From NCBI GenBank assembly GCA_028687205.1, contig JAQUAP010000001.1, positions 6,831-70,830 on the forward strand: a DNA stretch of 64,000 nt. Direction: 5' to 3'. Positions 4,782 to 41,745 of this stretch are shown here, one piece after another. This DNA is from Candidatus Omnitrophota bacterium. Its GTDB lineage: Bacteria; Omnitrophota; Gorgyraeia; Gygaellales; Profunditerraquicolaceae. Each line of letters begins with the position of its first letter. The first letter of the stretch is position 1. The position numbers were made by a program, and so were the translations under genes. A model generated the notes under the pieces. The model was given only the letters and a program-made list of their open reading frames with translations, did no database searches and was not told where the DNA came from.

Positions 4782-6644
4782 ATGTTATTGGACGGGATTA
4801 ATTCACCGCAGGATTTAAAGAAGCTCAAAATCGAGGAGCTACCCAGGCTTGCCGTAGAGATACGCCAGAGGATGACCGAGGTCGTCGCCGTGCGCGGCGG
4901 CCACCTTGCTTCAAGTTTAGGCGCGGTAGAGTTGATCATCGCCCTGCATTATTGTTTAAACGCGCCCAGTGACAAGATTATTTTTGATGTCGGGCACCAG
5001 GCTTACGCGCACAAAATATTAACCGGAAGAAATAAGGAATTCTCAACCCTTAGGGCTTATCAGGGCATATCCGGTTTCCCCTCCAAGGATGAATCGGTTT
5101 ATGATTGTTTCACTACCGGCCATTCTTCAAATGCGGTATCTTTGGCTTTAGGATTAGCCTGTGCCAGGGACAGGCTTACGCCTGACGAACATTTTAAGGT
5201 TGTCGCGGTAATCGGAGACGGCTCTTTAAGCGGAGGGTTATGTTTTGAGGGCTTGAATAATGCCGGCCACTTTAAAAAAGATATGCTGGTTGTCTTAAAC
5301 ACCAATGAACTGAGCATCTCCCCGAATGTCGGAGCAATCAGCAACTATTTGAATAAAATCATCTCCCTGCCGGTTTATAACCGTTTTAAGGAATCGCTGG
5401 AACATTTCCTGACTAAACGCGGAGAAAAAGGAAGCCGGGTTTTAAAGTTAGTCACTAAATTCGAGGAGAGCCTTAAAGGCCTGTTTATCCCGGGGATGTT
5501 ATTTGAAGAGCTGGGTTTTCGTTATTTCGGCCCTCTGGACGGCCATAATCTGGAGCTGCTTATCCCGGCGGTTAAAAATGTCTTGAATATCAAAGGTCCG
5601 CGCATATTGCATGTCGTGACTAAAAAAGGCAAGGGTTATTTTGCCGCGGAAAATGAGCCGGTGAGGTTCCACGGCACAGGTCCGTTTGATATCCAGACCG
5701 GCTTAAGCTTAACTAAGCCCGGAGCAGCCAAGACCTATACTGAAATTTTTAGCGGGAAATTAGTGGAGTTGGCAGCCAGAGATAATAAAATCGTCGCGAT
5801 TACCGCTGCCATGCCTGAAGGGACAGGTCTGGATAAGTTTCATCAGCTTTTCGCGGATAGATTTTTTGATGTCGGCATTGCCGAGGCCCACGCGGTTTGC
5901 TTTAGCGCCGGATTAGCCAAGGGCGGGCTGAAGCCGGTACTGGTTGTATATTCTACTTTTCTACAGCGCGCCTATGACCAGATTATTGAAGATATCGCCT
6001 TGCAGGAGCTGCCGGTCGTATTTTGCCTTGACCGCGCAGGGATTGTCGGAGAGGATGGCGCGACGCATCAGGGTATATTTGACTTAAGTTTCTTAAATAC
6101 CGTCCCGAACCTGATGATCTTAGCGCCTAAAGACGGCCCGGAACTTGCAGCAATGCTTGAATTTGCTTTTACCTGCGCCAGGCCCGTAGTCATAAGATAT
6201 CCTAAAGGCCAAGCTCAAAACTTAGAAAGCGCAACGCATCCCATTGAATTAGGCAAGGCAGAAATTTTAACCGAAGGGAAAAATTTTGCTATAATTGCTT
6301 TAGGGAGCATGGTTGCCCCGGCTTTAGAGGCGATAGAATCGCTTAAAAAGGAAAATTTATCCGGCACCCTGATCAATGCGCGCTTTGCCCGGCCGTTGGA
6401 TAAAGACCTGATTCTTAGAGTAGCAAAGCAGCCCGGTTTTATTTTTAGCGTTGAAGAGGGGATTATCGACGGAGGTTTTGGCAGCGCGGTCGAGGGTGTC
6501 TTAGGTAAGCCGGTAAACAAGATTGGCCTGCCGCGCTCCTTTATCAGCCATGGCAAAAGAGAATTGCTGCTGGATAAATACGGGTTGACTGCGCAGGGTA
6601 TTGCGCATAAGATTAAATCAGTCCTTCGATGCGCCCCAGCTTAA
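4782..6644 (+). CDS. dxs: 1-deoxy-D-xylulose-5-phosphate synthase
   Basis: 620 aa; thiamine-diphosphate motif GGHLASSLGAVELIIALHY...FDVGHQAYAHKILTGR; transketolase-like middle and C-terminal regions. Confidence 0.9.
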   Translation: MLLDGINSPQDLKKLKIEELPRLAVEIRQRMTEVVAVRGGHLASSLGAVELIIALHYCLNAPSDKIIFDVGHQAYAHKILTGRNKEFSTLRAYQGISGFPSKDESVYDCFTTGHSSNAVSLALGLACARDRLTPDEHFKVVAVIGDGSLSGGLCFEGLNNAGHFKKDMLVVLNTNELSISPNVGAISNYLNKIISLPVYNRFKESLEHFLTKRGEKGSRVLKLVTKFEESLKGLFIPGMLFEELGFRYFGPLDGHNLELLIPAVKNVLNIKGPRILHVVTKKGKGYFAAENEPVRFHGTGPFDIQTGLSLTKPGAAKTYTEIFSGKLVELAARDNKIVAITAAMPEGTGLDKFHQLFADRFFDVGIAEAHAVCFSAGLAKGGLKPVLVVYSTFLQRAYDQIIEDIALQELPVVFCLDRAGIVGEDGATHQGIFDLSFLNTVPNLMILAPKDGPELAAMLEFAFTCARPVVIRYPKGQAQNLESATHPIELGKAEILTEGKNFAIIALGSMVAPALEAIESLKKENLSGTLINARFARPLDKDLILRVAKQPGFIFSVEEGIIDGGFGSAVEGVLGKPVNKIGLPRSFISHGKRELLLDKYGLTAQGIAHKIKSVLRCAPA

Positions 6645-9221: not shown

Positions 9222-10518
9222 GGTAAGGTTTGCCCCCAGCCCGACAGGGGCATTGCATATCGGCGGAGCGCGCACTGCTTTATTTAACTGGCTTTATGCC
9301 CGCGCTAAAGGCGGTAAATTTATTTTACGGATAGAGGATACGGATAAACTGCGTTCAAAACAGGAATTTGTCGATGAGATTTTAAACAGCTTAAAGTGGC
9401 TCGGGTTTAACTGGGATGAGATTTATTATCAAAGCAAGCGCTTTAGTATTTACCATGAACACGCGCAGAGATTGCTTCAAGATGGCAAGGCCTATAAAGA
9501 AAAAGCTCCGGATAGGCCGGGAGAAGCGGTGATTTTTAAGGTCCCGCAGCAAAAGATAAAGATCCAGGATCTCATCCGCGGGGAGATTGAATTCGATACC
9601 AGCATCATTAAAGACCAGGTACTCATCAAATCCGATGGCACGCCGACTTATAATTTCGCCTGCGTGGTTGACGATGCGACCACTGATATTACCCACGTCA
9701 TACGCGGGGATGACCATATCTCTAATACGCCCAAGCAAGCCCTCTTATACGAAGCCTTAGGATTTACCCTGCCTAAATTTGCGCACCTGCCGTTGATTAT
9801 GGGTATGGAAGGAGGCAGGCTCTCCAAGCGCACCGGCGCTACCGCCATCAGCGATTACCGCAGGATGGGCTATCTGCCGCAGGCGCTGGTGAACTACCTT
9901 TTGCTCCTGAGCTGGGCGCCCGGAGACAATATCGAGATCATCGATATAAAAGAGGCGATAAAATTATTCGATGTCACGCAGGTGAATAAGACCGCAGCTA
10001 CTTTTGACCTGAAGAAACTGAACTGGATGAATAACCAGTACCTTAAAAATGAAGACCCGGAGAAGCTAACCGATACCCTGGTCCCGCTGCTTGCCGAAAA
10101 AAACTACATCGATACGAACAGGCTTGACCGGGAATACCTGGTATCTTTAGTGAAATTATTCCAGCCGCGCCTTACGACGATAACCGATTTTCCCGACTGG
10201 GCGGACTTCTTTTTTGTAGAGGAGCTCAAGATAGAACCGGAGGCGCAGAAGAAGTTCTTAACGGACGACTTATCAGCGGAATTCAGGCAGTTCATAGAAA
10301 AACTTGATAAATTGGAAAAATTTGATATCCTGAGCATAGAAGCTGGGTTCCGCGAATTGGTCAGGGAGCTGAACATCGAATCCAAGGCCCTGATCCATCC
10401 TGTCAGGGTCGCCCTTACCGGAAAGACCGTGGGGCCGGGGCTTTTTGAGGTTATCTATTATTTAGGAAAAGAGCGCACTAAAAAAAGGTTAAGCCGTTGG
10501 ATAAAGGGAGGAATATGA
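9214..10518 (+). CDS. gltX: Glutamyl-tRNA synthetase
   Basis: HIGH-type motif PSPTGALHIGGARTALFNWLYAR; KMSKS-like LSKR; 434 aa. Confidence 0.9.
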   Translation: MVRVRFAPSPTGALHIGGARTALFNWLYARAKGGKFILRIEDTDKLRSKQEFVDEILNSLKWLGFNWDEIYYQSKRFSIYHEHAQRLLQDGKAYKEKAPDRPGEAVIFKVPQQKIKIQDLIRGEIEFDTSIIKDQVLIKSDGTPTYNFACVVDDATTDITHVIRGDDHISNTPKQALLYEALGFTLPKFAHLPLIMGMEGGRLSKRTGATAISDYRRMGYLPQALVNYLLLLSWAPGDNIEIIDIKEAIKLFDVTQVNKTAATFDLKKLNWMNNQYLKNEDPEKLTDTLVPLLAEKNYIDTNRLDREYLVSLVKLFQPRLTTITDFPDWADFFFVEELKIEPEAQKKFLTDDLSAEFRQFIEKLDKLEKFDILSIEAGFRELVRELNIESKALIHPVRVALTGKTVGPGLFEVIYYLGKERTKKRLSRWIKGGI

Positions 10519-12548: not shown

Positions 12549-12622
12549 TGCCCTGTCGTCTAATGGTAGGACACAAGATTCTGGATCTTGTTATCATGGT
12601 TCGAGTCCATGCGGGGCAGCCA
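12549..12622 (+). tRNA. tRNA-Gln (anticodon CTG), CCA encoded
   Basis: Hand-folded cloverleaf: acceptor TGCCCTG/CGGGGCA, anticodon stem CAAGA/TCTTG with loop TTCTGGA, T-arm CATGG-TTCGAGT-CCATG, discriminator G plus CCA. Confidence 0.85.
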
Positions 12623-18404: not shown

Positions 18405-18488
18405 GCGCGGGTGGTGGAATGGCAGACACGCAAGCATGAGGGGCTTGTGCCGAAAGGCTTGGGGGTTCAACTCCCCCCTCGCGCACCA
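18405..18488 (+). tRNA. tRNA-Leu (anticodon GAG), type II with long variable arm, CCA encoded
   Basis: Acceptor GCGCGGG/CTCGCGC; anticodon stem CAAGC/GCTTG with loop ATGAGGG; variable arm TGCCGAAAGGCTT; T-arm GGGGG-TTCAACT-CCCCC. Confidence 0.8.
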
Positions 18489-22192: not shown

Positions 22193-22270
22193 GGCCCCAT
22201 CGTCTAGCCCGGTCTAGGACGCTTGGTTCTCAGCCAATAAACACGAGTTCAAATCTCGTTGGGGCTACCA
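22193..22270 (+). tRNA. tRNA-Glu (anticodon CTC), CCA encoded
   Basis: Glu-type D-arm TCGTCTAG...; anticodon stem CTTGG/CCAAT with loop TTCTCAG; T-arm ACGAG-TTCAAAT-CTCGT; acceptor GGCCCCA/TGGGGCT with G1-U72. Isotype rests on the hand fold. Confidence 0.7.
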
Positions 22271-28566: not shown

Positions 28567-28599
28567 TTTCTTACCAAATAATGTCCAATCTATAATATC

Positions 28600-28627
28600 T
28601 TGACAAATATTAGTTTTGAGTTATACT
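28600..28627 (+). promoter_or_regulatory. Sigma70-like promoter (TTGACA-N16-TATACT) flanked by two AATGTCCA(A/T)(A/T)CT motifs
   Basis: Consensus -35 and near-consensus -10; motif copies at 28580..28591 and 28641..28652. Confidence 0.55.
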
Positions 28628-28661
28628 CTATGTGCGGAGAAATGTCCAAACTGGAGTAGCT

Positions 28662-30839
28662 ATGGGTGTAATCTATAAATTAAAACCAGAAGTAAAAGAT
28701 TTCATCTTGCGGCAAAAGAGCGACAACCCCCACCTAAGCTGCCGTAAACTAACCGCCTTAGTTTTAGATAATTTTAAGATCGAGTTATCCAAATCCAGCA
28801 TTAATATGATTATCAAAGAAGCCGGCCTAAGCGCGCCTATAGGCAGGACCCCTAAAAAGAAAAGGCATCATATAGCTATGCCGCAATTGCCCGTATTGTT
28901 AGAAGATACGTCTGCCAAGGAAGCAGAAGCAGCTGCCAGGCAAGCTGAAAAAGAAAAATGGCAAAAATTAGCCGAAGAAGAAAGAAGGCGGCAGGAAGAA
29001 ATTAAAGAAGCCGAAGCAGAAAAACGCGCCAAGGAAGAAGCGGAAAAACGCGCCAAGGAAGAAGCGGAAAAAGCGCGTAAGGCAGAACAAGAAAAAAAGC
29101 GGCTTGAAGAAGAAGCTAAAAAAGCCGAAGAGGCGCAGCTGGCTGAGGAGGCCAAGAAAAAAGCTGAAGAAGAACGTCTCGCCCGGGAAGCTAAGCAAAA
29201 AGCCGAGGAAGAGAAACTTAAGGTCGCAGCAGAGAAACGCGCTAAGGAAGAAGCAGAAAAAGAAACCCTGCGTAAGCAAGAAGAGGAGAAATTAGCTAAA
29301 GAGGCCGCGGAAAAAGCGCGGCTTGAGCAGGAAGAAGCAGAGCGAAAAGCTAAGGAAGCCGCGGAAAAACTAAGGCTGGAAAAACTGGCGCAGGAAGAAA
29401 AAGCGCGTCAGGCCGAAGAGGCGCAGCTGGCTGAGGAGGCCAAGAAAAAAGCTGAAGAAGAGGCAGCTAAAAAAGCCGAGGAAGCAAAGAAAGCTGAAGA
29501 AGAGAAAGAGGCGTCTTTAGAGCCGGCAGGGGCAAAAGCCGCGGTTGCATTTGACGTCAGTACGTTCCCCCAGTTAGAAAATAGCGGGATTATCTTGCTT
29601 AAGGCAGCAGATTCTATTATCGGCGCAAGCTCACGCATTGCCGCGGCAGTTAAAAGCAGGTTATCCAGGACAGAGGGTAATTTTAACGCGGTGATAGAAA
29701 ACCTTATTTACCTGCCCTTACTCAAGGAAAAAATAGAAAAGCCTGTCTTGGATAAATTGTCCGCCTGTTTAAATGAAATAGAAAGTATCAAGGTGATGAA
29801 CCTGGATATTTTGCGTATTATCACTTTAAGCCTGCAGGAGGTGCGCTGTATCAGGATCATCCTCTCCGACGGAGAAAACCTCTACCTGGACGGGCAGATG
29901 TACTCGGTCTGGTCTAGCCCGCATATCCCCTATGATTTTGTCTCTCCCATCCATAATTTAAAAAAATATATCAAAAAATATTTTACCGAAGGCCAGCCGC
30001 TGGTGCTTTTTAACGCCCCGGGTTATGATATGCCTTCGCCGGAATTTTTTAGTTTTCTTGGCGCCTTTGAAGCGCAAGCAAGCAGCATCAGTAACATGAT
30101 TCTTTACGGCAATAAATTTAATGAACTGGAAGTCATCCCCATGTCCCCGGCTAAAAAACGCTTCTTTATCTTCGGGGTCTGGCCCTGGCAGTTTACCGAA
30201 TGCCGTAAAGTTAAGAACATAGGGCAATTCCGGCGCCTGCGCCTGGAAGCCCAGAACAGCGATTTTTATATCGCGGATATAGAGATGGCTTTGAGCCATC
30301 CGCGCCTGGGTAAACAGGTCAGCCTTAACGGGTGCGCGTTAAAGACAAGCCTGAATGAAAAAACGCGCCTGGTCATATTAAGTAACATTGCTCCCGGCGA
30401 TAAAAGCTCCGAGCAATTAGCCCTCACCTACCTTAGCCATTGGCCCAACCTGGACGAGGCTTTTCAGGACTATAGCCATAAAATTGAGCTCTTTACTTAC
30501 GCTGCCAATTCCCAGCGTTTCTTCTCCGCCGAAAAATTAAACCCGCAACTCGACCATGTTTTAAGCGTTGAGGAATTATTAAAGAACTATTTATTAGCTT
30601 TAGATGCCTATGTGCGCTGGTATTTATTGCCAGCCGGATATACGGATAAGGAGCTTACGCTGGTAAGAGAGCGCTTTTATAACCTGGATATCCGGCTAAC
30701 CAGGGATAATGAAACCTGTTTAGCCGGTTTTGTTGTTCCGCCGGGTTATTCTTTCGGCAAGGATTTAGGGTATCTTTGCCGCCGGCTCAACGAAAAAGAG
30801 GTTGCTTTCTCCGACGGGCTAAAATTATATTTTAAATAG
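28662..30839 (+). CDS. Hypothetical protein: N-terminal helix-turn-helix, long Lys/Glu/Ala-rich coiled coil, C-terminal globular domain
   Basis: Start taken at MGVIYKLKPEV (the ORF from 28632 would overlap the -10); HTH-like LSCRKLTALVLDNFKIELSKSSINMIIKEAGLS; about 230 aa of EEAKKKAEEE-type repeats. Confidence 0.5.
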   Translation: MGVIYKLKPEVKDFILRQKSDNPHLSCRKLTALVLDNFKIELSKSSINMIIKEAGLSAPIGRTPKKKRHHIAMPQLPVLLEDTSAKEAEAAARQAEKEKWQKLAEEERRRQEEIKEAEAEKRAKEEAEKRAKEEAEKARKAEQEKKRLEEEAKKAEEAQLAEEAKKKAEEERLAREAKQKAEEEKLKVAAEKRAKEEAEKETLRKQEEEKLAKEAAEKARLEQEEAERKAKEAAEKLRLEKLAQEEKARQAEEAQLAEEAKKKAEEEAAKKAEEAKKAEEEKEASLEPAGAKAAVAFDVSTFPQLENSGIILLKAADSIIGASSRIAAAVKSRLSRTEGNFNAVIENLIYLPLLKEKIEKPVLDKLSACLNEIESIKVMNLDILRIITLSLQEVRCIRIILSDGENLYLDGQMYSVWSSPHIPYDFVSPIHNLKKYIKKYFTEGQPLVLFNAPGYDMPSPEFFSFLGAFEAQASSISNMILYGNKFNELEVIPMSPAKKRFFIFGVWPWQFTECRKVKNIGQFRRLRLEAQNSDFYIADIEMALSHPRLGKQVSLNGCALKTSLNEKTRLVILSNIAPGDKSSEQLALTYLSHWPNLDEAFQDYSHKIELFTYAANSQRFFSAEKLNPQLDHVLSVEELLKNYLLALDAYVRWYLLPAGYTDKELTLVRERFYNLDIRLTRDNETCLAGFVVPPGYSFGKDLGYLCRRLNEKEVAFSDGLKLYFK

Positions 30840-33366: not shown

Positions 33367-34389
33367 ATGCGTAGGGCACAGGCATTATTGGAAGTAGCGA
33401 TTTTTGGGGCGATCATCGTGATGCTCTTGGGCGTCCTCATAAGCTACGGCATCAGGTATAATTCCCAACAGAAGCTGATGCAGCAGTCCTTCAGGAAGTC
33501 TTTAGCCGGTGCAGTAAGCGAACCGGGCAAGGCCATATCCAATGTATTATTGGGGGATACGCATATTCCCAATCCCGCGGATACCTTCGGCATAGGCTCG
33601 GTCACTCCTTTTACCGGCTCTGCCGGTTCCATTATCCGCGACTACCGTTTGAACGAGACCCCTGACCAGGATAGCGAGTTGCCCAGGATAAAAATGAGTA
33701 TCAATGGTAAAGAATTTACTTATAGGGTTGCCGGGTTCAGAGATGAATACAATGTCCCTGAAAGCAGCCTAGATAGGTACGACCAGATATACGGTTCGGG
33801 AAATGTCTGGAGCATCGGCGAAGGAGAATGTCTGGAGGAAGAGGAGACAACCGACCCGAATACCGGCCAGCCGGTTACGACCTGTAACCAGCCGTCAAAA
33901 AATATCCGCATTATCGATTCCTGCGCCGGGGAGGTCTTTGATTACGGCACTGCGGTAAAACAGTGCCGTATGATCGTGGACTCGGCTGCCTGCGTCAAAG
34001 AATGCAGCCGGGCCAACGACTCCACGGATTGTAACAGCGTCTGCAGCCACTCTATGAATATCCCCTGGTATTGCGCCAATTATACGGAAACGGATACCGT
34101 AAATCATGCCTACAATTTTCCTGTTTTAAACCAGCTTTTTAGCGCAACGAGCTTAAAGGCGCTTGGCTTACAACAGAATTACCAGCAGCGCATAACCGCC
34201 GACAGTTCCTTAAGGAGAACAGAAGATACTTCGGGCATTGCGACGACGGATAATGTTAACTGGGAGACTGAAATTACCAGGAAGATTATTACTCAACCTT
34301 ACGGCTCAACCAGCGGTGCTACGACTACCGAGGAGGTTACCAGTGCAGTTTCGCAGAATAAAGTGGAGTCCCGGAAGACCGGCTGGTAA
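33367..34389 (+). CDS. Large pilin-like protein 9 with Cys-rich C-terminal domain (minor pilin or tip candidate)
   Basis: MRRAQALLEVAIFGAIIVMLL prepilin-like N-terminus; 8 or more Cys in the CNQPS...CANY region. Confidence 0.55.
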   Translation: MRRAQALLEVAIFGAIIVMLLGVLISYGIRYNSQQKLMQQSFRKSLAGAVSEPGKAISNVLLGDTHIPNPADTFGIGSVTPFTGSAGSIIRDYRLNETPDQDSELPRIKMSINGKEFTYRVAGFRDEYNVPESSLDRYDQIYGSGNVWSIGEGECLEEEETTDPNTGQPVTTCNQPSKNIRIIDSCAGEVFDYGTAVKQCRMIVDSAACVKECSRANDSTDCNSVCSHSMNIPWYCANYTETDTVNHAYNFPVLNQLFSATSLKALGLQQNYQQRITADSSLRRTEDTSGIATTDNVNWETEITRKIITQPYGSTSGATTTEEVTSAVSQNKVESRKTGW

Positions 34390-34609
34390 AAGGGCTCAAG
34401 TTTCTTTAGAGCTGGCAGCCGGCATCGTCGTAGTTTTTATCCTGCTATTCGGTACATTACAGGTTTTTTTATGGATGAATAAGCGCCTGGTACAGAGGCA
34501 GAAAGATTACGAGGCTAAACGGGTGGAAGCGGGGAATAGTCCGGTAGAAGTTCAAATAGATGAGTCTGACCAAAGCAAATACCCGAAGCTGAATATTTTC
34601 GCCAAATAA
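34343..34609 (+). CDS. TadE-like pseudopilin 10 (GTG start inferred; overlaps the end of protein 9)
   Basis: KRAQVSLELAAGIVVVFILLF matches the TadE N-terminal motif; GGAGG 6 nt before the GTG at 34343; no ATG is available. Confidence 0.45.
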   Translation: MQFRRIKWSPGRPAGKRAQVSLELAAGIVVVFILLFGTLQVFLWMNKRLVQRQKDYEAKRVEAGNSPVEVQIDESDQSKYPKLNIFAK

Positions 34610-34655
34610 AAGGGGACGGTTCTATGCTAACGGCCATACGAATAGAACCGTCCCC
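34609..34655 (+). repeat. Palindromic REP-like element A (GGGGACGGTTCTAT-N16-ATAGAACCGTCCCC)
   Basis: Inverted arms at 34612..34625 and 34642..34655, immediately after the pseudopilin-10 stop. Confidence 0.7.
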
Positions 34656-34674
34656 GGGATAGCCGGGAGAGGCG

Positions 34675-36741
34675 ATGTTAGGGAATTTTTATCAGAAATT
34701 TTCTCTGGATAACCTGAAAAAAGACAGGCCTTTAGGCCAGGTGGCGACCATCCTTATCTTAATGGTCGTGGTCATCCTGATCATGATCCTGACCACGGTA
34801 AATTTAGGCCAGCTCTCTCTTTATACCACTACTCTTTCCAATATCGCGGATTCTTCAGCCATGTATTTAGCTTCACAGTTAGCCACCCGTTCCCATGCTC
34901 TATATCAGGCATTAGGAAATTCTACCTGTAAATGCAAAAGCGGTGGCTTTGGCGGGCTCTTTGGGGCAATAATCGGAGCAATTATCGTTATTGTAGTAAC
35001 CGTAGTTACTTATGGAGCAGGCACTGCTCCCACAATGGCCGCAGTTATGGCTAATACAGGCTTAATGGTAGCCGCAGGAGTTGTGGGCGGCGCCATAGGC
35101 GGAGCGATAGGTAGTAGCTATTCCGGAACAGGTATTCTGGCAGGAACTATCCAGGGGGCGATGATAGGAGGTGCGATTGGCTATGGAGTTAGTGCCGGCG
35201 CAGGAATGGGGGCCGATGTAGGTGGTTCAAGTTTAAGCCTTGAAGAAACAGAAGCTCTCCTGGCCATGCAGCAAAGCGGCGTTCAAACTGAGGCTGGAAT
35301 TGCTGCTGCTAGTAAAATAGCTACTGCTTCGGCAGTTGGTGCTGGAGCAGGAGGCACCTTAGCGGTGGGGGCAGCTAGCTACAATGCCTATGTGGCTGAC
35401 CAAAACCAGGCAGCTGCTTTTGCCGCTGCCTCCAGGATGCTGAACGGCTTGCCTGAATATGACCGCTACCGCGAGAGCATATTTTTACAGGTCTTTTCCC
35501 AGGCCGTGGATGACCCGAATAAGGATAAGGATACCGATGACTTAAACGGTAACGGCATAGTTGACGAGAAAATCCCACATTTTCTCCATTATTGGAGCGG
35601 CAGGATGGGCTACCTAAAAAGCGTTATCCCCAGCCTCCAGAGTATTACCAATACTTTTTTTAACGGAACCCTGGAGGACTTTCGAAAGTATATGCAGGTC
35701 CAAATTCTTGGCGAGAGTACAGGCTCTTCTGATCCGGAAACAGGTTCGTCTACCTATAAACCCGGGATACTTTCTAAGGCGGGAGCAGGTACAAACGTTA
35801 CTGCCAACGGTTCGGTAGCTGAAGTCGCCGAGGCCTTGAATCCTATGTTCTGGAACCCGCAAAGCAACGGCTCTTTTGACAGCATCGTCAGCGGCTTTAA
35901 CAGCTTTATCTCCGACGTAAAATCGCTGCAGGAGATAGGCCTTAGCCGCCTGACCAGCCAGTGGCAGACCTACATCAAGAATTTTTATAATAAAGATGCC
36001 GGAAAGACGGCCGAGGATGGCTCAACCATTACGGATTATTATACGATGTTGGGGGAGGTAAAAGGTTATTTAAATGACTGGAAGACGCAGATTGCGCAGA
36101 AGAGGAACGCCCTTCCTGCCTGTAAAATGGGTGGGTGGGAGATGATTGATTACGCTACCTTTTGCCAACCCTGTGGTTTCAGCACTTTTTGCCCTAACAG
36201 CTGTATTATTGATTCCGGCCCAGAGATGAGCCCGATGCCTTGCAAATTTAATTTTACCCTTAAAGGCGGCACCCTGGATTATAACGTAGATGATGAGATT
36301 ACCGCCAGCCTGAACGATATCGATACTTTGATCAATAAGATTAGTAATTTCCAAGACGCGATTAAGCAGTATGTCAATGATATGGAAAATACCTACGCTG
36401 CGCTTGAAAGCGGTTACGGCGGACTGAACCCGGCGATTTACAGTTGGGCCGACAGCCGCGGAGACCACAGCGTAAGGGTCGCAGTAGGCAATTACCAGTT
36501 GGCCAGGACCATCACTACCTCTAGCGGAAGCTGGCTGAAGAAAGAGATCTGCGTACGCCTGGTGGATTACAGCGACGACGGCTCCAATTCCTGGGTGCAG
36601 ATAACCCGCCAGGACCCCAAGAACAAGGATGTAAAAACAGGAAAAGTAAGTTTAGGGATGTGGAATCCGTTTTTTAGTGGTACAATTACTAAGAAAGGCA
36701 GGGCCTATTATAGTTACGATAAAGTAGGCCTGACCCAGTAA
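34675..36741 (+). CDS. TadG-like pilus assembly protein 11 (large, Gly-rich, Cys-containing C-terminal region)
   Basis: N-terminal GQVATILILMVVVILIMILTTVNLGQLSLYTTTLSNIADSSAMYLASQLA matches the TadG/TadE N-terminal pattern; 688 aa. Confidence 0.6.
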   Translation: MLGNFYQKFSLDNLKKDRPLGQVATILILMVVVILIMILTTVNLGQLSLYTTTLSNIADSSAMYLASQLATRSHALYQALGNSTCKCKSGGFGGLFGAIIGAIIVIVVTVVTYGAGTAPTMAAVMANTGLMVAAGVVGGAIGGAIGSSYSGTGILAGTIQGAMIGGAIGYGVSAGAGMGADVGGSSLSLEETEALLAMQQSGVQTEAGIAAASKIATASAVGAGAGGTLAVGAASYNAYVADQNQAAAFAAASRMLNGLPEYDRYRESIFLQVFSQAVDDPNKDKDTDDLNGNGIVDEKIPHFLHYWSGRMGYLKSVIPSLQSITNTFFNGTLEDFRKYMQVQILGESTGSSDPETGSSTYKPGILSKAGAGTNVTANGSVAEVAEALNPMFWNPQSNGSFDSIVSGFNSFISDVKSLQEIGLSRLTSQWQTYIKNFYNKDAGKTAEDGSTITDYYTMLGEVKGYLNDWKTQIAQKRNALPACKMGGWEMIDYATFCQPCGFSTFCPNSCIIDSGPEMSPMPCKFNFTLKGGTLDYNVDDEITASLNDIDTLINKISNFQDAIKQYVNDMENTYAALESGYGGLNPAIYSWADSRGDHSVRVAVGNYQLARTITTSSGSWLKKEICVRLVDYSDDGSNSWVQITRQDPKNKDVKTGKVSLGMWNPFFSGTITKKGRAYYSYDKVGLTQ

Positions 36742-36742
36742 T

Positions 36743-37204
36743 ATGGAATTAAATAGTAAAGACAAAAAAAATAACCCCATCTTGGAGTATGCTATTCTGG
36801 CAGGGGTAGTTATTGTCTTTCTTATATTTATTTTCCAGATAAGGACAGGAGACGTTAATTTCTGCCGCGCTATCTTTAAAGATTTGGCCGGCGGACGTTA
36901 CGGCGTCCAGAAATATATTGACTGGGAACATTTCCAGGGTTTGGATATTGATGTCGCAGCAACCTATAACAGCTTTGCCACGCAAAAAGAAAAAACCGGC
37001 TATAAAAAGGCCTTTATCCAAAGCTTCTCCCGCGGGTTTAAGAATGCGGGAGGCAGGTATAAGGCATTTGTCAATTGGCGCATTTATAGCAAGGCCGGCA
37101 ATCAGATAACTGTGGCTGCCGACTATCAAGGCCGTAACCAGACTTTATTATTTACCCTCCCAAGCGCAGGGAAAAAGAAATTAATTGCCCTGCAATGGCA
37201 ATAG
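36743..37204 (+). CDS. Pilin-like protein 12
   Basis: NNPILEYAILAGVVIVFLIFIF prepilin-like N-terminus. Confidence 0.55.
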   Translation: MELNSKDKKNNPILEYAILAGVVIVFLIFIFQIRTGDVNFCRAIFKDLAGGRYGVQKYIDWEHFQGLDIDVAATYNSFATQKEKTGYKKAFIQSFSRGFKNAGGRYKAFVNWRIYSKAGNQITVAADYQGRNQTLLFTLPSAGKKKLIALQWQ

Positions 37205-37213
37205 CTTAGTTTA

Positions 37214-37375
37214 ATGAGGAATAAAAAAGGTTTTTTATCCCTGGAATACGCGCTGCTCATTGCGGTATTGGTAGCGGCGCTGGTAGCCATGGGATTTTAT
37301 TTTAAGCGCTCCTTAAGCGGAAAATGGCGGGAGGCAGGGGACAGTTTTGGCTTTGGCCGGCAGTACAAACCTTAG
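37214..37375 (+). CDS. Flp/Tad-type pilin-like protein 13
   Basis: MRNKKGFLSLEYALLIAVLVAALVAM; 53 aa, below the ORF-track cutoff; the stop overlaps palindromic element B. Confidence 0.6.
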   Translation: MRNKKGFLSLEYALLIAVLVAALVAMGFYFKRSLSGKWREAGDSFGFGRQYKP

Positions 37376-37450
37376 GGACGGTTCTCAACTCAAAGCTAAA
37401 GTGTCCCCCGATTAGGGGACGCTTTGAGATTGGCTTGAGAACCGTCCCTA
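37373..37450 (+). repeat. Palindromic REP-like element B (TAGGGACGGTTCTCAA...TTGAGAACCGTCCCTA with a nested inner palindrome)
   Basis: Arms at 37373..37388 and 37435..37450; inner CTCAAAGC...GGGGACGCTTTGAG. Confidence 0.7.
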
Positions 37451-37470
37451 AATAAAACGAAAGTTAGCCT

Positions 37471-38319
37471 ATGCAAATCTTAGTAATCCTGGGATTAATC
37501 GCTGCGTCCATAATTTTAATCGGTAGCCAACTCCTGCCTATATTCCTGCAACGGGCAAGCAATCTGCACACGCAAAAGGTAACGGAGGCGGAAAAACAAC
37601 TGGATAAGATGTTTATCCAGGTCAACCGCCAGAAGCTTATTTTATGGTATACGGTTACACCCCTTATTATGGGGCTGGCGGGTTTTTTCTTTTTCCGCAA
37701 TTTAGGCTTAGCCCTACTTACCGGCGCAGTCAGCTTTATCTTTCCTTCCCTGATCATTAAAAATTTAAAAGCTAAACGCCGCGCCCTCTTTCAAAACCAG
37801 CTTGCCGACGGGATCATGGTGCTTTCCTCGTCGCTAAAAGGCGGGCTTTCCTTGATGCAGGCGATGGAGGTGGTAGTGGAGGAGATGCCGGCTCCTTTTT
37901 CCCAGGAATTCGGCCTGGTCTTAAGAGAAAATAAAATCGGCGTGCCCTTAGAAGAGAGCCTGAAGCATTTACACGAGAGGCTGCATTTTGAAGAGCTGGA
38001 TTTAGTGATTAACTCTATGCTGGTTTCTAAAGAAACCGGCGGAGACCTAACTAAAGTTTTAGCGCGCCTCTCGGTTACGCTGCGGGATAACCGCAAATTA
38101 AAGGAAAGCATCAAGACCTTGACCCTCCAAGGTAGGCTCCAGGGGATCATTATGTCGGTATTACCCTTCTTTTTTGTCGCCTGGGTAGTAAGTTTTAACC
38201 GCAACCACTTTGATATCATGTTTAATTCAGAGACAGGCAGGGTACTTTTAATAATCGCGGTTTGCTTACAGGTAGTGGGGATATTTTTAATCCATAAATT
38301 CAGTAAGATAGACATATAG
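37471..38319 (+). CDS. tadB: Flp pilus assembly protein TadB (T2SS F-domain membrane protein)
   Basis: 282 aa with an N-terminal TM helix, cytoplasmic GspF-like domain and C-terminal TM helices, directly after the pilin genes. Confidence 0.75.
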   Translation: MQILVILGLIAASIILIGSQLLPIFLQRASNLHTQKVTEAEKQLDKMFIQVNRQKLILWYTVTPLIMGLAGFFFFRNLGLALLTGAVSFIFPSLIIKNLKAKRRALFQNQLADGIMVLSSSLKGGLSLMQAMEVVVEEMPAPFSQEFGLVLRENKIGVPLEESLKHLHERLHFEELDLVINSMLVSKETGGDLTKVLARLSVTLRDNRKLKESIKTLTLQGRLQGIIMSVLPFFFVAWVVSFNRNHFDIMFNSETGRVLLIIAVCLQVVGIFLIHKFSKIDI

Positions 38320-38325
38320 TCCAAC

Positions 38326-38374
38326 AGGGGACGGTTCTATTCTTTATGGCCATTTAGCATAGAACCGTCCCCTG
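38326..38374 (+). repeat. Palindromic REP-like element C (GGGGACGGTTCTAT-N18-ATAGAACCGTCCCC)
   Basis: Arms at 38327..38340 and 38359..38372, between tadB and tadC. Confidence 0.7.
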
Positions 38375-38388
38375 CGAGCAGGAGGAAT

Positions 38389-39250
38389 ATGCTTATATTA
38401 ATTTTTATATTTCTGGCATTGGCAATTATATTAATAGTAGTAGGCATAAGGAGTATCCCTCAGGTCACCGGAGCCAGGACGCCGATAGCCCCCATAAAAT
38501 CCAGAGTCTCCAGGTTCCATTTTCTAGCCGCGATTTTTTCCTTTCACCAAAGTTATCCTGGAGAAGCTCAATTTAGAGCTTAAAATTAAATCCCGCTTAG
38601 CCAGCGCGCATTTAAGGCTTACGCCCCAGGAGTTTTTTAACCTTAAGCTCCTGTTTATGATTGTTTTAATTATCCTCACTCCCATAGTATTAGGTAAGAT
38701 TGAGCCAGTGGGATTTATTGTCGCGCTTGCCGCCGGATACCTCCTGCCGGAGATTTGGCTCAACAGCCGGGTAGCTAAGCGTAAATACGCCATTATCCGG
38801 GTGCTCCCTGAAACCGTAGATTTATTAAGTTTATGCGTGGACGCCGGCCTGGATTTTGTCGCTTCCATTGAGTGGGTGATTAAAAAAGGCATCTCCACCA
38901 ACCCGATGATTGAAGAGCTGGCCTTTGTTTTAGAGGAGATCCAGTGGGGTAAACCCCGCAGCCAGGCCTTAAAAGATATGGCTAAGAGGCTGAATATCCC
39001 GGAGGTCAACTCTTTTATCCAGACCCTGGTCCAGGCTGAACGCATGGGCACTCCGGTTGCCGAGGCCTTTGGGGTTTTATCCGAAGACGCCCGTATGCAA
39101 CGCTTTAACCGCGGAGAGCGGTTCGCGATGAAGGCTCCGATTAAAATCCTTATCCCGCTCATCTTCTGTATCCTGCCGGTAATCGGCATCATTATCGGCG
39201 GCCCGATATTCCTGCAGTTTACCCAGGGCAAAATGCTCCAAGGCTTCTAA
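38389..39250 (+). pseudogene. tadC: Flp pilus assembly protein TadC, apparent single-base frame change near the T6 run at ~38534
   Basis: N-terminal 45 aa read in the frame of 38389 and the rest in the frame of 38657; the latter is open back to 38528 and encodes the typical TadC region ...LKIKSRLASAHLRLTPQEFFNLKLLFMIV. Confidence 0.6.
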
Positions 39251-39253
39251 AAT

Positions 39254-39310
39254 AAAGGGGACGTTTCTATTTATTTGAGCAACTATAGAAAAAATAGAAA
39301 CGTCCCCTTT
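39254..39310 (+). repeat. Palindromic REP-like element D (AAAGGGGACGTTTCTAT-N23-ATAGAAACGTCCCCTTT), upstream of the RAYT-like gene
   Basis: Arms at 39254..39270 and 39294..39310. Confidence 0.7.
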
Positions 39311-39367
39311 ATTTTGCGTTAGATTTTTTCTTACCTTACGTCAATTGTAGTATAAGGAGGCAGCCCT

Positions 39368-40045
39368 ATGCCCAGGATAGGAAGAATAGTCCCTCTTGAT
39401 GCTACCTTACATGTCATCAGTAGGGGTAATAACCGCCGAGTTGTGTTTCATAGTGAAAGTGACAAATTGAGATATTATGCATTATTATTTAAATTGAAGC
39501 AAGAAAATAAGATAGATATTTTACACTATTGCTTGATGGCCAACCATGTCCATTTGGTCCTCCAGCTTAAACCGGAAAGCACCCTAGCTAAGTTTATGAA
39601 ACAGCTTAATTTAACGTATTCTCATTACTATAGGAAGCTATATGAATATGCCGGCTATCTCTGGCAAGGCAGATTCAAAAGCAATATAATTGAAATGGAC
39701 TCATATTTATTGCAATGCGGTAAATATATTGAACTTAATCCGGTTCGGGCGGGCATTATAGCTCATCCCGCACAATACCTTTTCTCAAGCTATAATTTCT
39801 ATGCGGAAGGCAAATCCGACTCACTTGTTACTCCGAGCCCGGTATACCTGGGTTTAGCTGGCTCACCTGCGCGAAGGCAGGAACAATATATTGATTTTGT
39901 AATTGACAGCAGTATAATAAACTCAGATTTACTCGCCTCTAAAATATATATAGGAAGCCAAGCTTTTATTAACCGCCTCCAAACTCAATATAAGATAGGG
40001 AATTACAGGGAGAAAAGGGGCAGGCCATTCAAAGCAGAACAATAA
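39368..40045 (+). mobile_element. IS200-like Y1 transposase of the REP-associated (RAYT/TnpA-REP) type
   Basis: N-terminal HVISRGNNRRVVF; HuH motif ANHVHLVLQL; WQGRFKS and YLLQCGKYIELNPVRAGI (catalytic Tyr region); flanked by palindromic elements D and E. Confidence 0.7.
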
Positions 40046-40051
40046 TAAAAA

Positions 40052-40068
40052 ATAGAAACGTCCCCTTT
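40052..40068 (+). repeat. REP-like half element E (ATAGAAACGTCCCCTTT) directly after the transposase stop
   Basis: Same arm sequence and orientation as the right arm of element D; overlaps the 5' end of the porin reading frame. Confidence 0.65.
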
Positions 40069-40071
40069 ATT

Positions 40072-41271
40072 TTACTGCTGACCGCATTAAGCTTATCTTT
40101 CGCTATACAGCATGCCCAAGCCGCGCTCACCCCCTTAGAGATATCCCAGCAGGAAGAGCAAAAGATCGAAGGCCCCGTAAAAGACATCTGGTTTAACCGG
40201 CTCAGCGACTACCGCCAGGATGTCGCTAAAAAATATGGCACAAACTTTGCCTTTCTTTTTAATTATACCCAGCAGGCGATAATCAAGGCGCCTAACGACG
40301 AAGGCAAAAGCCGCGGGGTCTGGTATTGGAACTTTGAGATAGCCCAGAAGCTCTGGCCAGGCGCAGAGTTGTTCGTAGAATTTGAGATGGATAGAGGTAA
40401 GGGGGTAGATAAGTTTTTGCCCACTTTTTCTTCCTTTAACGATAACTCCGGGGATGACGCCTGGTTTTATCTGCCGGTTTTATATTTAGAGCAGTATCTT
40501 CTCGACGATAAGCTCTTTTTCGCCGCCGGCAAGCTGGATCTAACTTACTGGTTTGACTGGAACGAGGCAGCGAGCTCTGCGGATACCCAATTCTTATCCA
40601 GTGCCCTGGTAAATAACCTGGCTATTCCCTTTCCGGCTAAAGGCCTGGGTGCCCTGGCCTGCATTACGCCCTTAGAATGGCTCTATTTTCAGTCCGGCGC
40701 AGCTACTGCTAAAGCCAGCTCTACCAAGGTCGGCCTAAGCGACGGATTTAACAGCACTTTTTTTATCAATGAGCTGGGTTTCACTCCTAAGTTCGGCTCC
40801 TTGCAAGGAAATTACCGTTTTATCTTTTACCTGAACCGCGAAAAGTCAGATTACCTTAATTCTGACGAAAGCAAAAAGATAGATTCCGGCTGGGCCTTAA
40901 GCTTTGACCAGCAAGTGGCTAAAAACATAATTTTATTTTTGCGCTACGGTTTTAGCGACCAAAAAGTCAGGGAGATTGAATATTTCTGGTCAGGAGGTAT
41001 GCAGATACTTGAGCCCATCCCTGGCCGTAAATTTGACTGCCTGGGAATAGGCGTAGCCCGCTCTATTTTTGGCAATGATTACCGCGAGGCAAACGAAGAA
41101 GAAGATTCTAGCGTCAGCCGCGCAGAGACAATTTATGAAGCCTATTACAGCTACCATTTAAATAACAGCCTAACCTTAACTCCGGATATCCAAATAGTCA
41201 TCCACCCCAATGCCGATAATTCGGCGAAGACAGAAATCGTCTGCGGTCTCAGATTCCTGCTCAGCTTCTAA
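40072..41271 (+). CDS. OprB-family (carbohydrate-selective) outer-membrane porin-like protein; 5' end and start codon unresolved
   Basis: Frame open upstream of the 40369 ATG back to about 40045 and encodes a signal peptide ...LLLTALSLSFAIQHAQA|ALTPLE; C-terminal ...VCGLRFLLSF with terminal Phe; no canonical start codon upstream of the signal peptide. Confidence 0.5.
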   Translation, partial: LLLTALSLSFAIQHAQAALTPLEISQQEEQKIEGPVKDIWFNRLSDYRQDVAKKYGTNFAFLFNYTQQAIIKAPNDEGKSRGVWYWNFEIAQKLWPGAELFVEFEMDRGKGVDKFLPTFSSFNDNSGDDAWFYLPVLYLEQYLLDDKLFFAAGKLDLTYWFDWNEAASSADTQFLSSALVNNLAIPFPAKGLGALACITPLEWLYFQSGAATAKASSTKVGLSDGFNSTFFINELGFTPKFGSLQGNYRFIFYLNREKSDYLNSDESKKIDSGWALSFDQQVAKNIILFLRYGFSDQKVREIEYFWSGGMQILEPIPGRKFDCLGIGVARSIFGNDYREANEEEDSSVSRAETIYEAYYSYHLNNSLTLTPDIQIVIHPNADNSAKTEIVCGLRFLLSF

Positions 41272-41359
41272 GTTAAATTTATTGTCCAAACTGAATTCTC
41301 GTCGCTGTTTTAATGTCCATTCTACCTCAAAATAATCTAAAAATGTCCATTCTTCTAAT

Positions 41360-41454
41360 AAAGGGGACGTTTCTATTTTTTTGTCGCCTGATTGCTAGAA
41401 AAAATAGAAACGTCCCCTTTATTTCCTTGGCCATTAGGCCAAAACCGTCCCCTG
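41360..41454 (+). repeat. Palindromic REP-like element F (two inverted arms plus a third partial arm AACCGTCCCCTG)
   Basis: Arms at 41360..41376 and 41404..41420; partial copy at 41443..41454. Confidence 0.7.
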
Positions 41455-41562: not shown

Positions 41563-41590
41563 TTGACAGCGACGAGCTACGTGTTATACT
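41563..41590 (+). promoter_or_regulatory. Sigma70-like promoter (TTGACA-N16-TATACT) for the giant gene
   Basis: Consensus -35 with a 16-nt spacer; about 25 nt upstream of the riboswitch-like leader. Confidence 0.55.
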
Positions 41591-41615
41591 TTGGATGTAA
41601 TTGAGACAAGTAACG

Positions 41616-41745
41616 AAATGGCAAACCCGGAGAAATCCGGGGGCGCAAAGCCGCGGGTCCTAAAATAATTCAAGTAAATAGCTTCAAAGGATAGCCGGGC
41701 TGCCGAATTACCGACGGAAATTTGACAGTTCGGCTCTTTCTTTTT
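41616..41745 (+). ncRNA. Putative c-di-GMP-I (GEMM) riboswitch with terminator-like expression platform
   Basis: GGCAAACC at 41620..41627; hairpin CCCGGA-GAAA-TCCGGG (GNRA loop) at 41626..41641; GGCGCAAAGCC at 41642..41652; 3' UUACCGACGG at 41708..41717 (compare Vc2 UUACCGAUGG); hairpin GCCGAA/TTCGGC plus TCTTTCTTTTT at 41702..41745. Confidence 0.6.

Follow-up and report, generated by a model that had tools for sequence, protein, structure and literature searches.

A probable TIRtron with REPIN-like hairpin doublets in the Tad pilus locus of a Candidatus Omnitrophota bacterium

Why does a pilus operon carry one palindromic arm in gap after gap, and what links these copies to the transposase-like gene that stands among them? 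The question is raised by a Tad pilus locus of Candidatus Omnitrophota bacterium, found in a window of 64,000 nucleotides (nt) at positions 6,831-70,830 of the forward strand of contig JAQUAP010000001.1 (assembly GCA_028687205.1). Positions given below are those of this 64-kb stretch, and the other loci compared are named by an L and a number. Within 34.6-41.5 kb each intergenic gap longer than ~20 nt holds an arm element, and a gene for an HuH/Y1 transposase-like protein (hereafter the Y1 gene) lies between tadC and a porin gene. An earlier note on this DNA had proposed that repetitive extragenic palindromic (REP) doublets forming hairpins (REPINs), together with a REP-associated tyrosine transposase (RAYT), had invaded the Tad locus. 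In our judgement the locus is probably a TIRtron, that is, an HuH/Y1 gene of subclass 2.1 bracketed by terminal inverted repeats (TIRs) of ~27 nt, with REPIN-like doublets copied into the gaps of the Tad operon. The earlier proposal survives in its RAYT superfamily, its REPIN-like doublets and its polymorphic sites. The unit is named a TIRtron and not a canonical REPIN-RAYT system because its protein is placed in subclass 2.1 and scores below the cut-off for REP transposases, and because the arms lack GTAG.

Repetition of the arm in the Tad region, as first claimed, is confirmed. The exact 14-mer GGGGACGKTTCTAT has nine matches on the two strands of the window against 0.02 expected from shuffles, and the 11-mer core GGGACGKTTCT, at up to one mismatch, has 12, all within 34613-41451. 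The terminal repeat core reads GGGGACG(T/G)TTCTA, and the non-autonomous doublets, of ~45-65 nt, consist of two inverted arms around a spacer. In total the window holds five hairpin doublets, one solo arm and one truncated arm (Table 1). The earlier count of six inverted-repeat copies is therefore right for five; the copy placed after the transposase gene is a single arm in minus orientation, and the truncated copy at 41424-41454 comes in addition. The copy after the pilin gene is palindromic, as had been said, but degenerate and nested, with outer arms AGGGACGGTTCTC and inner arms GGGGACGC. The G/T position of the earlier consensus corresponds to two sequence variants: core position 8 is G in the copies at 34.6, 37.4, 38.3 and 41.44 kb, and T in all five arms beside the Y1 gene and after the porin gene.

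The five doublets are among the eight strongest short-range inverted repeats of the whole window. Their RNA folds on the coding strand, a check that the note had suggested, are very stable, with energies from -27 to -53 kcal/mol (z-scores -4.3 to -9.6); that of the solo arm is not significant. The intergenic elements are inverted doublets of the arm that brackets the Y1 gene, and they fold into very stable hairpins. At different sites and in different genomes the G-variant doublets have a common loop (T..TATGGCCAT..TAGC), which means that copying takes in the whole ~46-nt unit; the loop TCTTTATGGCCATTTAGC of the doublet between tadB and tadC, for example, is near-identical to that of a copy at another site in L127. 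The truncated element is homologous to the loop and arm of copies in L122 and L127, its left arm having been displaced by the T-variant doublet. Assembly artefact does not account for the elements, because an independently assembled 2-kb Logan contig (L001) is identical in sequence to the window and Joint Genome Institute (JGI) metagenomes show the same architecture.

The Y1 gene is flanked on both sides by the same arms, just as the note had it. The left arm, AAAATAAAGGGGACGTTTCTATTTATT, lies at 39249-39275 on the plus strand and is paired into a hairpin with 39289-39315, and the right arm lies inverted at 40047-40073 on the minus strand, immediately past the stop of the gene. The encoded protein carries the Y1 HuH motifs that were first read in it: N59-H60-V61-H62, then W99-Q100, YIELNP at residues 120-125 with Tyr120, and a C-terminal KRGRPFK. 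Residues H60, H62, R102, Y120, N124 and P125, together with WQ, are invariant across 52 homologues. Although a single-sequence phmmer search of the 225-residue (aa) protein against the PDB found no match with an E of 0.01 or less, a profile built from 40 homologues ranked Escherichia coli TnpA-REP first (4ER8, E 2.6e-5) and ISDra2 TnpA next. In the 4ER8 alignment the HuH segment falls on its HMH, WQ-RF is aligned, and Y120 meets the Tyr of YIYINP, so that the protein does align at the IS200/RAYT HuH and Tyr positions. An AlphaFold (AF2) model reached a predicted local distance difference test (pLDDT) score of 82.7 and a predicted template-modelling (TM) score (pTM) of 0.80. Its best Foldseek match is 4er8_A (E 2e-7, target TM 0.69), and the top 30 matches are all TnpA-REP, IS608, ISDra2 or IS200 transposases (E 2e-7 to 4e-4). 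The protein is thus a genuine HuH/Y1 protein, with a TnpA-like fold and the catalytic motifs.

An identical (100%) protein is on record from a Candidatus Omnitrophota metagenome-assembled genome (MAG), and 2,197 relatives were found, the nearest all in Omnitrophota. The family is large, with ~29,700 clusters at 50% identity for E<=1e-3 and ~12,000 for E<=1e-10. The protein scores 62.9 bits with the NCBIfam model REP_Tyr_transpos (NF047646, cut-off 80) and 34.7 bits with the IS200 model (NF033573, cut-off 55); since it falls below both cut-offs, it counts neither as an IS200 transposase nor among the curated REP-associated enzymes. Class 2 TnpA-Y1 proteins, or RAYTs sensu lato, are defined by the tyrosine motif Y-x3-NP (PMC6006769). 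Subclass 2.1 has the triplet NHVH (or NH[YF]H), W[EQ] and YIELNP and a median length of ~238 aa (PMC6006769, Table 1). Quentin et al. equate it with RAYT Group 1 of Bertels and with the TIRYTs of Di Nocera (PMC6006769, PMC3733652). Compared with the Table 1 motifs, the window protein, with NHVH, WQ and YIELNP in 225 aa, bears the subclass 2.1 signature, and by motifs and length it is assigned to TnpA-Y1 subclass 2.1, alias Group-1 RAYT or TIRYT.

Beyond the catalytic domain, residues 141-225 gave no Pfam match at E up to 0.1, and no C-terminal domain resembling a helix-turn-helix (HTH) was found there. The model has short helices at this end, followed by a low-confidence tail with KRGRPFK. The terminal RGRPxK is nearly invariant among homologues, and an RGRP end also occurs in proteobacterial plasmid members; we take this tail to resemble an AT-hook. 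A similarity to sigma-70 region 4 in the C-terminus of a Clostridial homologue (E 0.07) is not significant and was given no weight.

These results bear directly on the classical REPIN-RAYT explanation, in which a single-copy, vertically inherited Group 2/3 RAYT would serve a large genome-wide population of GTAG-tagged REP doublets. The nearest solved structure is indeed TnpA-REP, inverted hairpin doublets are present and flank the gene, and L132 and L124 carry the gene at this locus too, which suggests that on short timescales it is inherited vertically. Yet the motif signature is that of subclass 2.1 / Group 1 and not of Groups 2/3, and the REP_Tyr_transpos score is below its cut-off, so that of the earlier label, REP-associated tyrosine transposase, only the superfamily stands. 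The arms have no GTAG or GTGG foot, being preceded by A-rich sequence or CA, on which ground a GTAG-REP reading was rejected. Within the 64 kb no copies lie beyond the cluster, and homologues in other Omnitrophota sit at unrelated loci, a behaviour nearer to that of an insertion sequence. RAYT Group 1 is described as insertion-sequence-like by Bertels et al. (2017; PMC5581495). We regard the classical system as unlikely here.

An autonomous insertion sequence (IS) of the IS200/IS605 type, with subterminal hairpins, would make the other copies solo ends of past insertions. Such an origin would fit the Y1_Tnp domain, the weak NCBIfam IS200 match, the whole arm-gene-arm unit of ~0.8 kb in differing genomic contexts and the truncated Y1 gene remnants that adjoin arms in L118 and L051, as well as in L124. 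It is nevertheless very unlikely, as the tyrosine motif is Y-x3-NP (class 2) and not Y-x3-Q, the IS200 score is below 55, no tnpB-like open reading frame (ORF) lies nearby, and the ends are true inverted repeats and not same-strand left and right hairpins; membership in IS200/IS605 was rejected on these points. The doublets with their conserved loop are, moreover, separate non-coding units and not IS ends.

The TIRtron geometry itself recurs far from the window. Around homologues a common layout is found: a plus arm, ~60-110 nt with a conserved leader, the gene from ATG to stop, and a minus arm. It occurs in Omnitrophota (L102, L132, L140, L142 and L144) and in Clostridia (L011, L041, L097 and L003), where the proteins are 27-31% identical to the window protein and the core GGGGACGGTTCTA is identical. 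A leader nearly the same as that of the window precedes the homologues in L132 and L124, and also those in L140, L142 and L144, in unrelated genomic contexts; a sigma-70 scan did not flag the leader in the window. TIRtrons, with their TIRYT proteins, were described by Di Nocera, De Gregorio & Rocco in 2013, with the TIR motif GGGGWSAS (PMC3733652). Plasmid homologues of Pseudomonas and Rhodospirillum (35% identity) have the TIRs AAAGGGGACAG / AAAGGGGTCAG, which fit this motif at 8/8 positions.

How widely the arm occurs was asked of 185,579 species genomes (596 Gb) with the 15-mer AGGGGACGKTTCTAT, and at least 120 matches were listed. About 2,000 chance matches to the 15-mer are estimated over 596 Gb, and single matches therefore mean little. 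Among the matches listed, however, 113 of 156 arms are accompanied by a second arm no more than 120 nt away or form a local stem with 4/5 pairs or better; the control, 52 matches in viral contigs, gave single matches of which 0/52 were structured. The viral matches serve as a negative control and are no evidence of carriage by phages. The hosts among the matches listed include Omnitrophota, Aminicenantes, many Clostridia, Nitrospirota, Planctomycetia, Coriobacteriia and Deltaproteobacteria, and several MAGs matched on two different contigs. By tblastn and an iterated hidden Markov model, a Y1 gene was found at 9/120 of the listed arm loci, with three further remnants or cut genes. By estimate, ~12/120 loci with a Y1 gene or remnant is far above background for ~0.84 Mb. 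Since the gene stands at few of the arm loci, most arms are dispersed copies and not gene ends. A literature search for the core sequence returned chance matches only.

Base pairing gives a second line of evidence. In 263 non-redundant arms, the 5-6 nt flanking the 13-nt core are complementary far beyond what composition would give: the -2/+14 pair is Watson-Crick in 186 against 107 expected, and mutual information is 0.37-0.49 bits at three flank pairs. Compensatory families occur (AAGACA..TGTCTT, CAATCA..TGATTG and AATAAA..TTTATT), and the signal is lost when the partner is shifted by one base. By these covarying flanks each arm is itself a short stem enclosing the invariant core, and two such arms make a doublet, an architecture that, as read from the sequence, parallels REPINs. 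The arm is a real and widespread element. Its flanks also speak to an explanation of another kind, that the palindromes are operators for a regulator of the Tad/porin region that binds double-stranded DNA. Perfect inverted repeats would suit such a protein, and in L102 and L041 the upstream arm abuts a -35-like TTGACA of the Y1 gene, where binding could autoregulate. But arm spacing varies from 0 to ~80 nt, most copies lie downstream of genes and not at promoters, covarying stems point to base pairing and not to a fixed half-site, and the same core stands beside Y1 genes in many phyla. The operator explanation is hardly credible.

Several observations on the arms and genes of other loci may be recorded here. 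L041 has two Y1 gene copies within 8 kb. In L144 (9800-9990) the upstream arm is triplicated (AAACTAGGGGACGCTTCG x3) and the leader partly duplicated in tandem. The database homologue P0015 has an annotated C-terminal extension, ...ENRTVPFILE, which is the translated right arm; gene callers thus at times extend an ORF into the repeat. Another core variant, TAGGGACAGCGACCG / TAGGGACAGAAACC, appears in hairpins and TIRs at L125 13790-13860 and at L061 ~1260-1330 and ~1930-1990, and GGGAC-type arms thus seem to form a wider series in these phyla.

Related operons differ in the elements that they carry. In 18 related Tad loci (tadB 53-89% identical) the gene order is kept: pseudopilins, pilin, tadB, tadC, porin, cyclic di-GMP (c-di-GMP) riboswitch and giant gene. 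Comparison of related genomes at the element sites, also proposed in the note, revealed presence/absence polymorphism, plainest between tadB and tadC. All ten relatives that hold this junction (L122-L127, L129, L132, L134 and L137) pass from stop to ATG in ~5-22 nt with no element, and only the window has there an insert of ~60 nt with a G-variant doublet. The doublet after the pseudopilin genes is present in the window, L122 and L125 and not in L124, L127 and L130. After the pilin gene, L122, L127, L128 and L130 have one degenerate minus-strand arm and the other relatives, L123-L126 among them, none. After the porin gene, L132 and L124 have a G-variant doublet where the window has a T-variant one. 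The pattern is consistent with invasion.

The spacer between tadC and the porin gene is the most varied. Nothing occupies it in L126 (3597-3688), whose porin gene is supplied with a promoter, an ATG and an n-region of its own. The window has the Y1 gene there, and so does L132, whose copy is 75% identical and has G-variant arms and the doublet in the same position; L124 has a Y1 gene remnant with a 5' deletion. In L122 (11714-12531), L125 and L127 it is taken by a pair of HTH_17 and Fic/Doc genes, and in L123 (2525-5110) by genes for an AAA-type ATPase and a Fic protein. The spacer is an insertion hot spot, each version of which changes the start codon of the porin and the n-region of its signal peptide; a Doc toxin pair also adjoins the Rhodospirillum rubrum plasmid homologue (L199). 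Elsewhere in Omnitrophota, Y1 homologues of 59-70% identity occupy unrelated neighbourhoods.

After the porin gene, L122 (13730-14450) and L127 (9535-10225) carry a second Y1 gene, of 186-187 aa, 52% identical and without the RGRP tail; its flanks carry another inverted repeat, AGGGACCGTTTCCCTA, of which the upstream arm is duplicated, an example of how protein and repeat change together. Around the Y1 gene itself, core position 8 is T in all five arms of the window and G in L132. The concerted G-to-T change in five arms is most simply explained by copying, not by five independent mutations. Arms are perfect in the window and in L132, which have the intact cognate gene, and mutated in L122 and L127, which have only the 52%-identical gene with the TIR AGGGACCGTTTCCCTA.

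A number of points weigh against the TIRtron explanation. The core, at up to one mismatch, is absent from the remaining ~57 kb of the window, so that the elements form one 7-kb cluster. That arms are intact only beside an intact gene with the matching repeat is seen over ~6 loci, a small sample, and presence and absence among relatives could partly stem from deletions. The only clearly new insertion, that between tadB and tadC, is of the G variant, while the repeats of the resident gene are of the T variant; its mover may have been another enzyme or an earlier state of the resident one. No target-site signature or excision junction was found. Quentin et al. (2018) found no REP-like repeats for subclass 2.1 (PMC6006769), and a literature search met no report of biochemical activity for it. 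Cleavage, strand specificity and the transposition pathway are therefore argued by analogy only.

IS608 TnpA and E. coli TnpA-REP serve as the models for how the TIRtron would work. Where the replication fork exposes single-stranded DNA, the arms would fold out into hairpins. These would be bound by the Y1 protein and cut through Tyr120 with an HuH-bound metal, and the protein would then rejoin the strands, which would place copies of the doublets, or of the whole unit, at new sites. Inserted elements would be transcribed with the operon as very stable RNA hairpins. Some arms have become part of genes, as at the pilin stop codon and the start region of the porin.

Table 1. Arm elements, the Y1 gene and the porin gene in the window (RNA folds in kcal/mol, coding strand; TIRtron ends as proposed here)
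Feature	Position	Strand	Make-up and context	RNA fold
G-variant doublet	34612..34655	.	GGGGACGGTTCTAT, 16-nt loop, ATAGAACCGTCCCC; 14/14 complementary arms; loop homologous to other G-variant loops; begins 2 nt past stop of ORF 34238-34609	-27.4 (z -4.3)
Nested degenerate palindrome	37372..37451	.	Outer arms TTAGGGACGGTTCTCAA / TTGAGAACCGTCCCTAA; inner GTGTCCCC..GGGGACGC, opposite orientation; 37-nt arms, 81% match	-52.8 (z -9.6)
G-variant doublet, tadB stop to tadC ribosome-binding site	38325..38374	.	~60-nt lineage-specific insertion	-31.1
T-variant doublet, putative left TIRtron end	39249..39315	.	AAAATAAAGGGGACGTTTCTATTTATT, 13 nt, AAAAAATAGAAACGTCCCCTTTATTTT; 27-nt arms, 96% match; directly after tadC stop	-34.4 (z -9.3)
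Conserved leader or promoter region of Y1 gene	39316..39367	+	TTAGAT..TACGTCAATTGTAGTATAAGGAGG	
HuH/Y1 transposase-like gene, 225 aa	39368..40045	+	Pfam Y1_Tnp (PF01797), E 1e-18	
OprB-family porin gene	40045..41271	+	Pfam OprB, E 8e-36	
Solo T-variant arm, putative right TIRtron end	40047..40073	-	Inverted relative to left arm; 14-mer match 40052-40065	
T-variant doublet after porin	41357..41423	.	25-nt perfect arms (100%), then TTTATTT	part of a -49.7 fold
Truncated G-variant element	41424..41454	.	Loop remnant TTGGCCATTAGGCC and right arm AAAACCGTCCCC; core match 41441-41451, 1 mismatch	

Might the hairpins instead be primarily host regulatory RNA, that is, terminators, mRNA stabilisers or processing sites, with the Y1 gene an incidental neighbour? 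All elements lie between co-oriented genes, mostly just past stop codons, and their folds, as given above, are very stable. The T-variant hairpins have a GC-rich base, CGUCCCC, then UUUAUUUU / TTTATTTT, and are preceded by AAAAUAAA / AAAATAAA, as in bidirectional terminators. The G-variant elements, on the other hand, have no U-tract, and one of them lies 8 nt upstream of the tadC ribosome-binding site, inside the operon. Relatives with otherwise collinear operons differ in which sites are occupied, and the same 13-nt core brackets Y1 homologues in other phyla and in unrelated contexts. A terminator scan listed none of the elements, but as it admits loops of no more than 8 nt, it could not have listed them. 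A primarily regulatory origin is thus quite unlikely. The two T-variant hairpins do look like bidirectional terminators, and the G-variant ones do not; the role of terminator or stabiliser that the note had allowed to all elements is plausible only for these two.

The elements also touch host genes, the porin gene among them. The right arm lies within the 5' end of the porin frame and encodes K-N-R-N-V-P-F-I, the charged start of the signal peptide; L132, L124 and the window have in common an arm-encoded start K-N-R-x-V-P-F-I. The porin begins just ahead of the arm, with GTG in L132 and with ATG-GTG in L124. In the window the codon aligned with these GTG starts reads ATA (40045-40047), and the signal peptide has no canonical start ahead of it. 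At the empty site of L126 the porin has its own ATG and the n-region MRKRVVYAFF... The start and signal-peptide n-region of the porin have been remodelled by the proposed TIRtron. Given the ATA codon and the lack of a canonical start, the window porin may be poorly translated or inactive. The pilin gene is touched at its other end, where the stop codon TAG (37373-37375) of the 53-aa Flp-type pilin ORF falls within the outer arm (TTAGGGACGG in the window). The pilin stop TAG is also part of an arm in L122 (~9968-9983) and L127 (~5774-5789), where it reads TAGAAC.

Other features of the neighbourhood are noted for completeness. A near-consensus promoter, TTGACA-16-TATACT (41563-41590), stands ahead of a c-di-GMP-I-GGC riboswitch (Rfam RF03167, 67.5 bits) at 41611-41708 on the plus strand, upstream of a giant ORF that starts at ~41882; promoter and c-di-GMP aptamer are conserved in L122, L124, L125, L127 and L132. 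The window tadC (38389-39250) is frameshifted at a T run, with the break near 38537-38550: residues 1-54 and 50-286 of the single 286-aa TadC of relatives align to it in two frames, so that it is either a pseudogene or split by a homopolymer assembly error. Boxes of the form ATGTCCA(A/T)(A/T)CT(A/G) have four exact matches in the window against 0.14 expected (28581-28653 and 41283-41350). They bracket the TTGACA..TTATACT promoter of ORF 28632-30839 and recur two to three times between the porin stop and the hairpin, where they are kept in all relatives; they may be a candidate operator of a regulator. Three plus-strand tRNA genes were found with Rfam (12549-12619, 18405-18485 and 22193-22267). 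GC skew is positive throughout the window, and the plus strand carries nearly all large ORFs.

A bolder idea goes beyond this locus. The 13-nt core GGGGACGKTTCTA is conserved from Omnitrophota to Clostridia, over which range the proteins have diverged to ~30% identity. Conceivably, core and covarying stem together are the common recognition hairpin, possibly also the cleavage hairpin, of the whole of subclass 2.1; we put this forward tentatively and consider it doubtful. An invariant 'loop' within a variable stem resembles the origins of Rep proteins more than it does GTAG-guided REPs. If the idea is true, a large RAYT group without characterised biochemistry would gain a defined substrate, and subclass 2.1 would maintain REPIN-like populations, contrary to the 2018 survey.

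The locus is of the TIRtron/TIRYT kind known since 2013, here in Omnitrophota. Subclass 2.1 / Group 1 is the largest RAYT group, and no activity, substrate or role has been reported for it in the literature. In so large a family a defined candidate substrate has some value, and the arm of 25-27 nt with its invariant 13-nt core is such a candidate. The locus and its close relatives form a compact natural experiment, in which a site may be empty, filled, decayed or replaced and in which one lineage has gained elements. They also furnish examples of elements absorbed into their hosts, as a pilin stop, a signal-peptide start of a porin and terminator-like hairpins in a pilus operon. For the annotation of uncultured phyla, the case accounts for recurrent palindromes and for mis-extended 'transposase' ORFs.

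How, then, does this unit compare with systems already known? With IS200/IS605 elements (IS608 and ISDra2 TnpA) it has in common the HuH/Y1 fold and, presumably, recognition of single-strand hairpins and cleavage and ligation by tyrosine. It differs from them in Y-x3-NP against Y-x3-Q, an extra C-terminus of ~85 aa, the lack of tnpB and inverted TIRs. CGTC-tagged REPs have an unpaired terminal CGTC, a stem of 8-9 bp, a loop of 4-5 nt and a CCA tail, and no transposase is associated with them (PMC3733652). The window arm does contain CGTC (..AACGTCCCC), and its copies form head-to-head dimers. This kinship was rejected, however, as the CGTC of the window lies inside a stem of 14-27 bp, the loops are of 13-18 nt, and a Y1 gene is associated.

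A more distant parallel is found in the origins used by the HuH Rep proteins of geminiviruses and circoviruses, in which a variable, covarying stem flanks a nonanucleotide loop. A single arm, with its covarying stem of 6 bp and invariant 13-nt core, is built alike, and the comparison is a functional one only. Unlike those origins, the arm has no replication function and gives no evidence of cleavage in the core, and in doublets the core is fully base-paired with the partner arm.

REPtrons and REPIN-RAYT systems (E. coli TnpA-REP 4ER8; Pseudomonas Groups 2/3) come nearer. They provide the nearest structure and profile, and in both cases inverted palindromic repeats flank the gene, with hairpin doublets just past stops between co-oriented genes. 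As in REPINs, the five doublets each fold as one hairpin and move as a unit, to judge from the shared loop and the tadB-tadC insertion. The window system departs from them in its missing GTAG guide tetranucleotide, in its protein subclass, in a score below the NCBIfam equivalog cut-off, in a gene that is not syntenic across the phylum and in copies confined, within the window, to a 7-kb cluster, where REPINs are dispersed over a genome in tens to hundreds of copies.

The closest likeness is to TIRtrons. The window core GGGGACGT fits GGGGWSAS at 7/8 positions; it reads GGGGACG(G/T), with G in place of A at position 7. The C-terminus of the window protein has no Pfam HTH, as against the tails resembling DnaA_C, HTH_23 or HTH_28 that Quentin et al. 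report (PMC6006769). Omnitrophota hosts are absent from the surveys of this kind cited above, and published descriptions do not include conserved-spacer doublets with subclass 2.1, a 13-nt core shared across phyla with Clostridia, covarying stems or an arm serving as a signal-peptide start. In both, NHVH, WQ and YIELNP stand in a protein of ~225-240 aa, the TIRs are A-rich and then read GGGG(A/T)(C/G), and the TIR ahead of the gene is about equally far from the ATG. Some published TIRs belong to families of moderate abundance, grouped in dimers or clusters (PMC3733652), and the repeats described here likewise form a modest family so arranged. Genomic context varies in both, with partly IS-like behaviour, and the C-terminal RGRP of the window protein is common to the proteobacterial plasmid members of the group.

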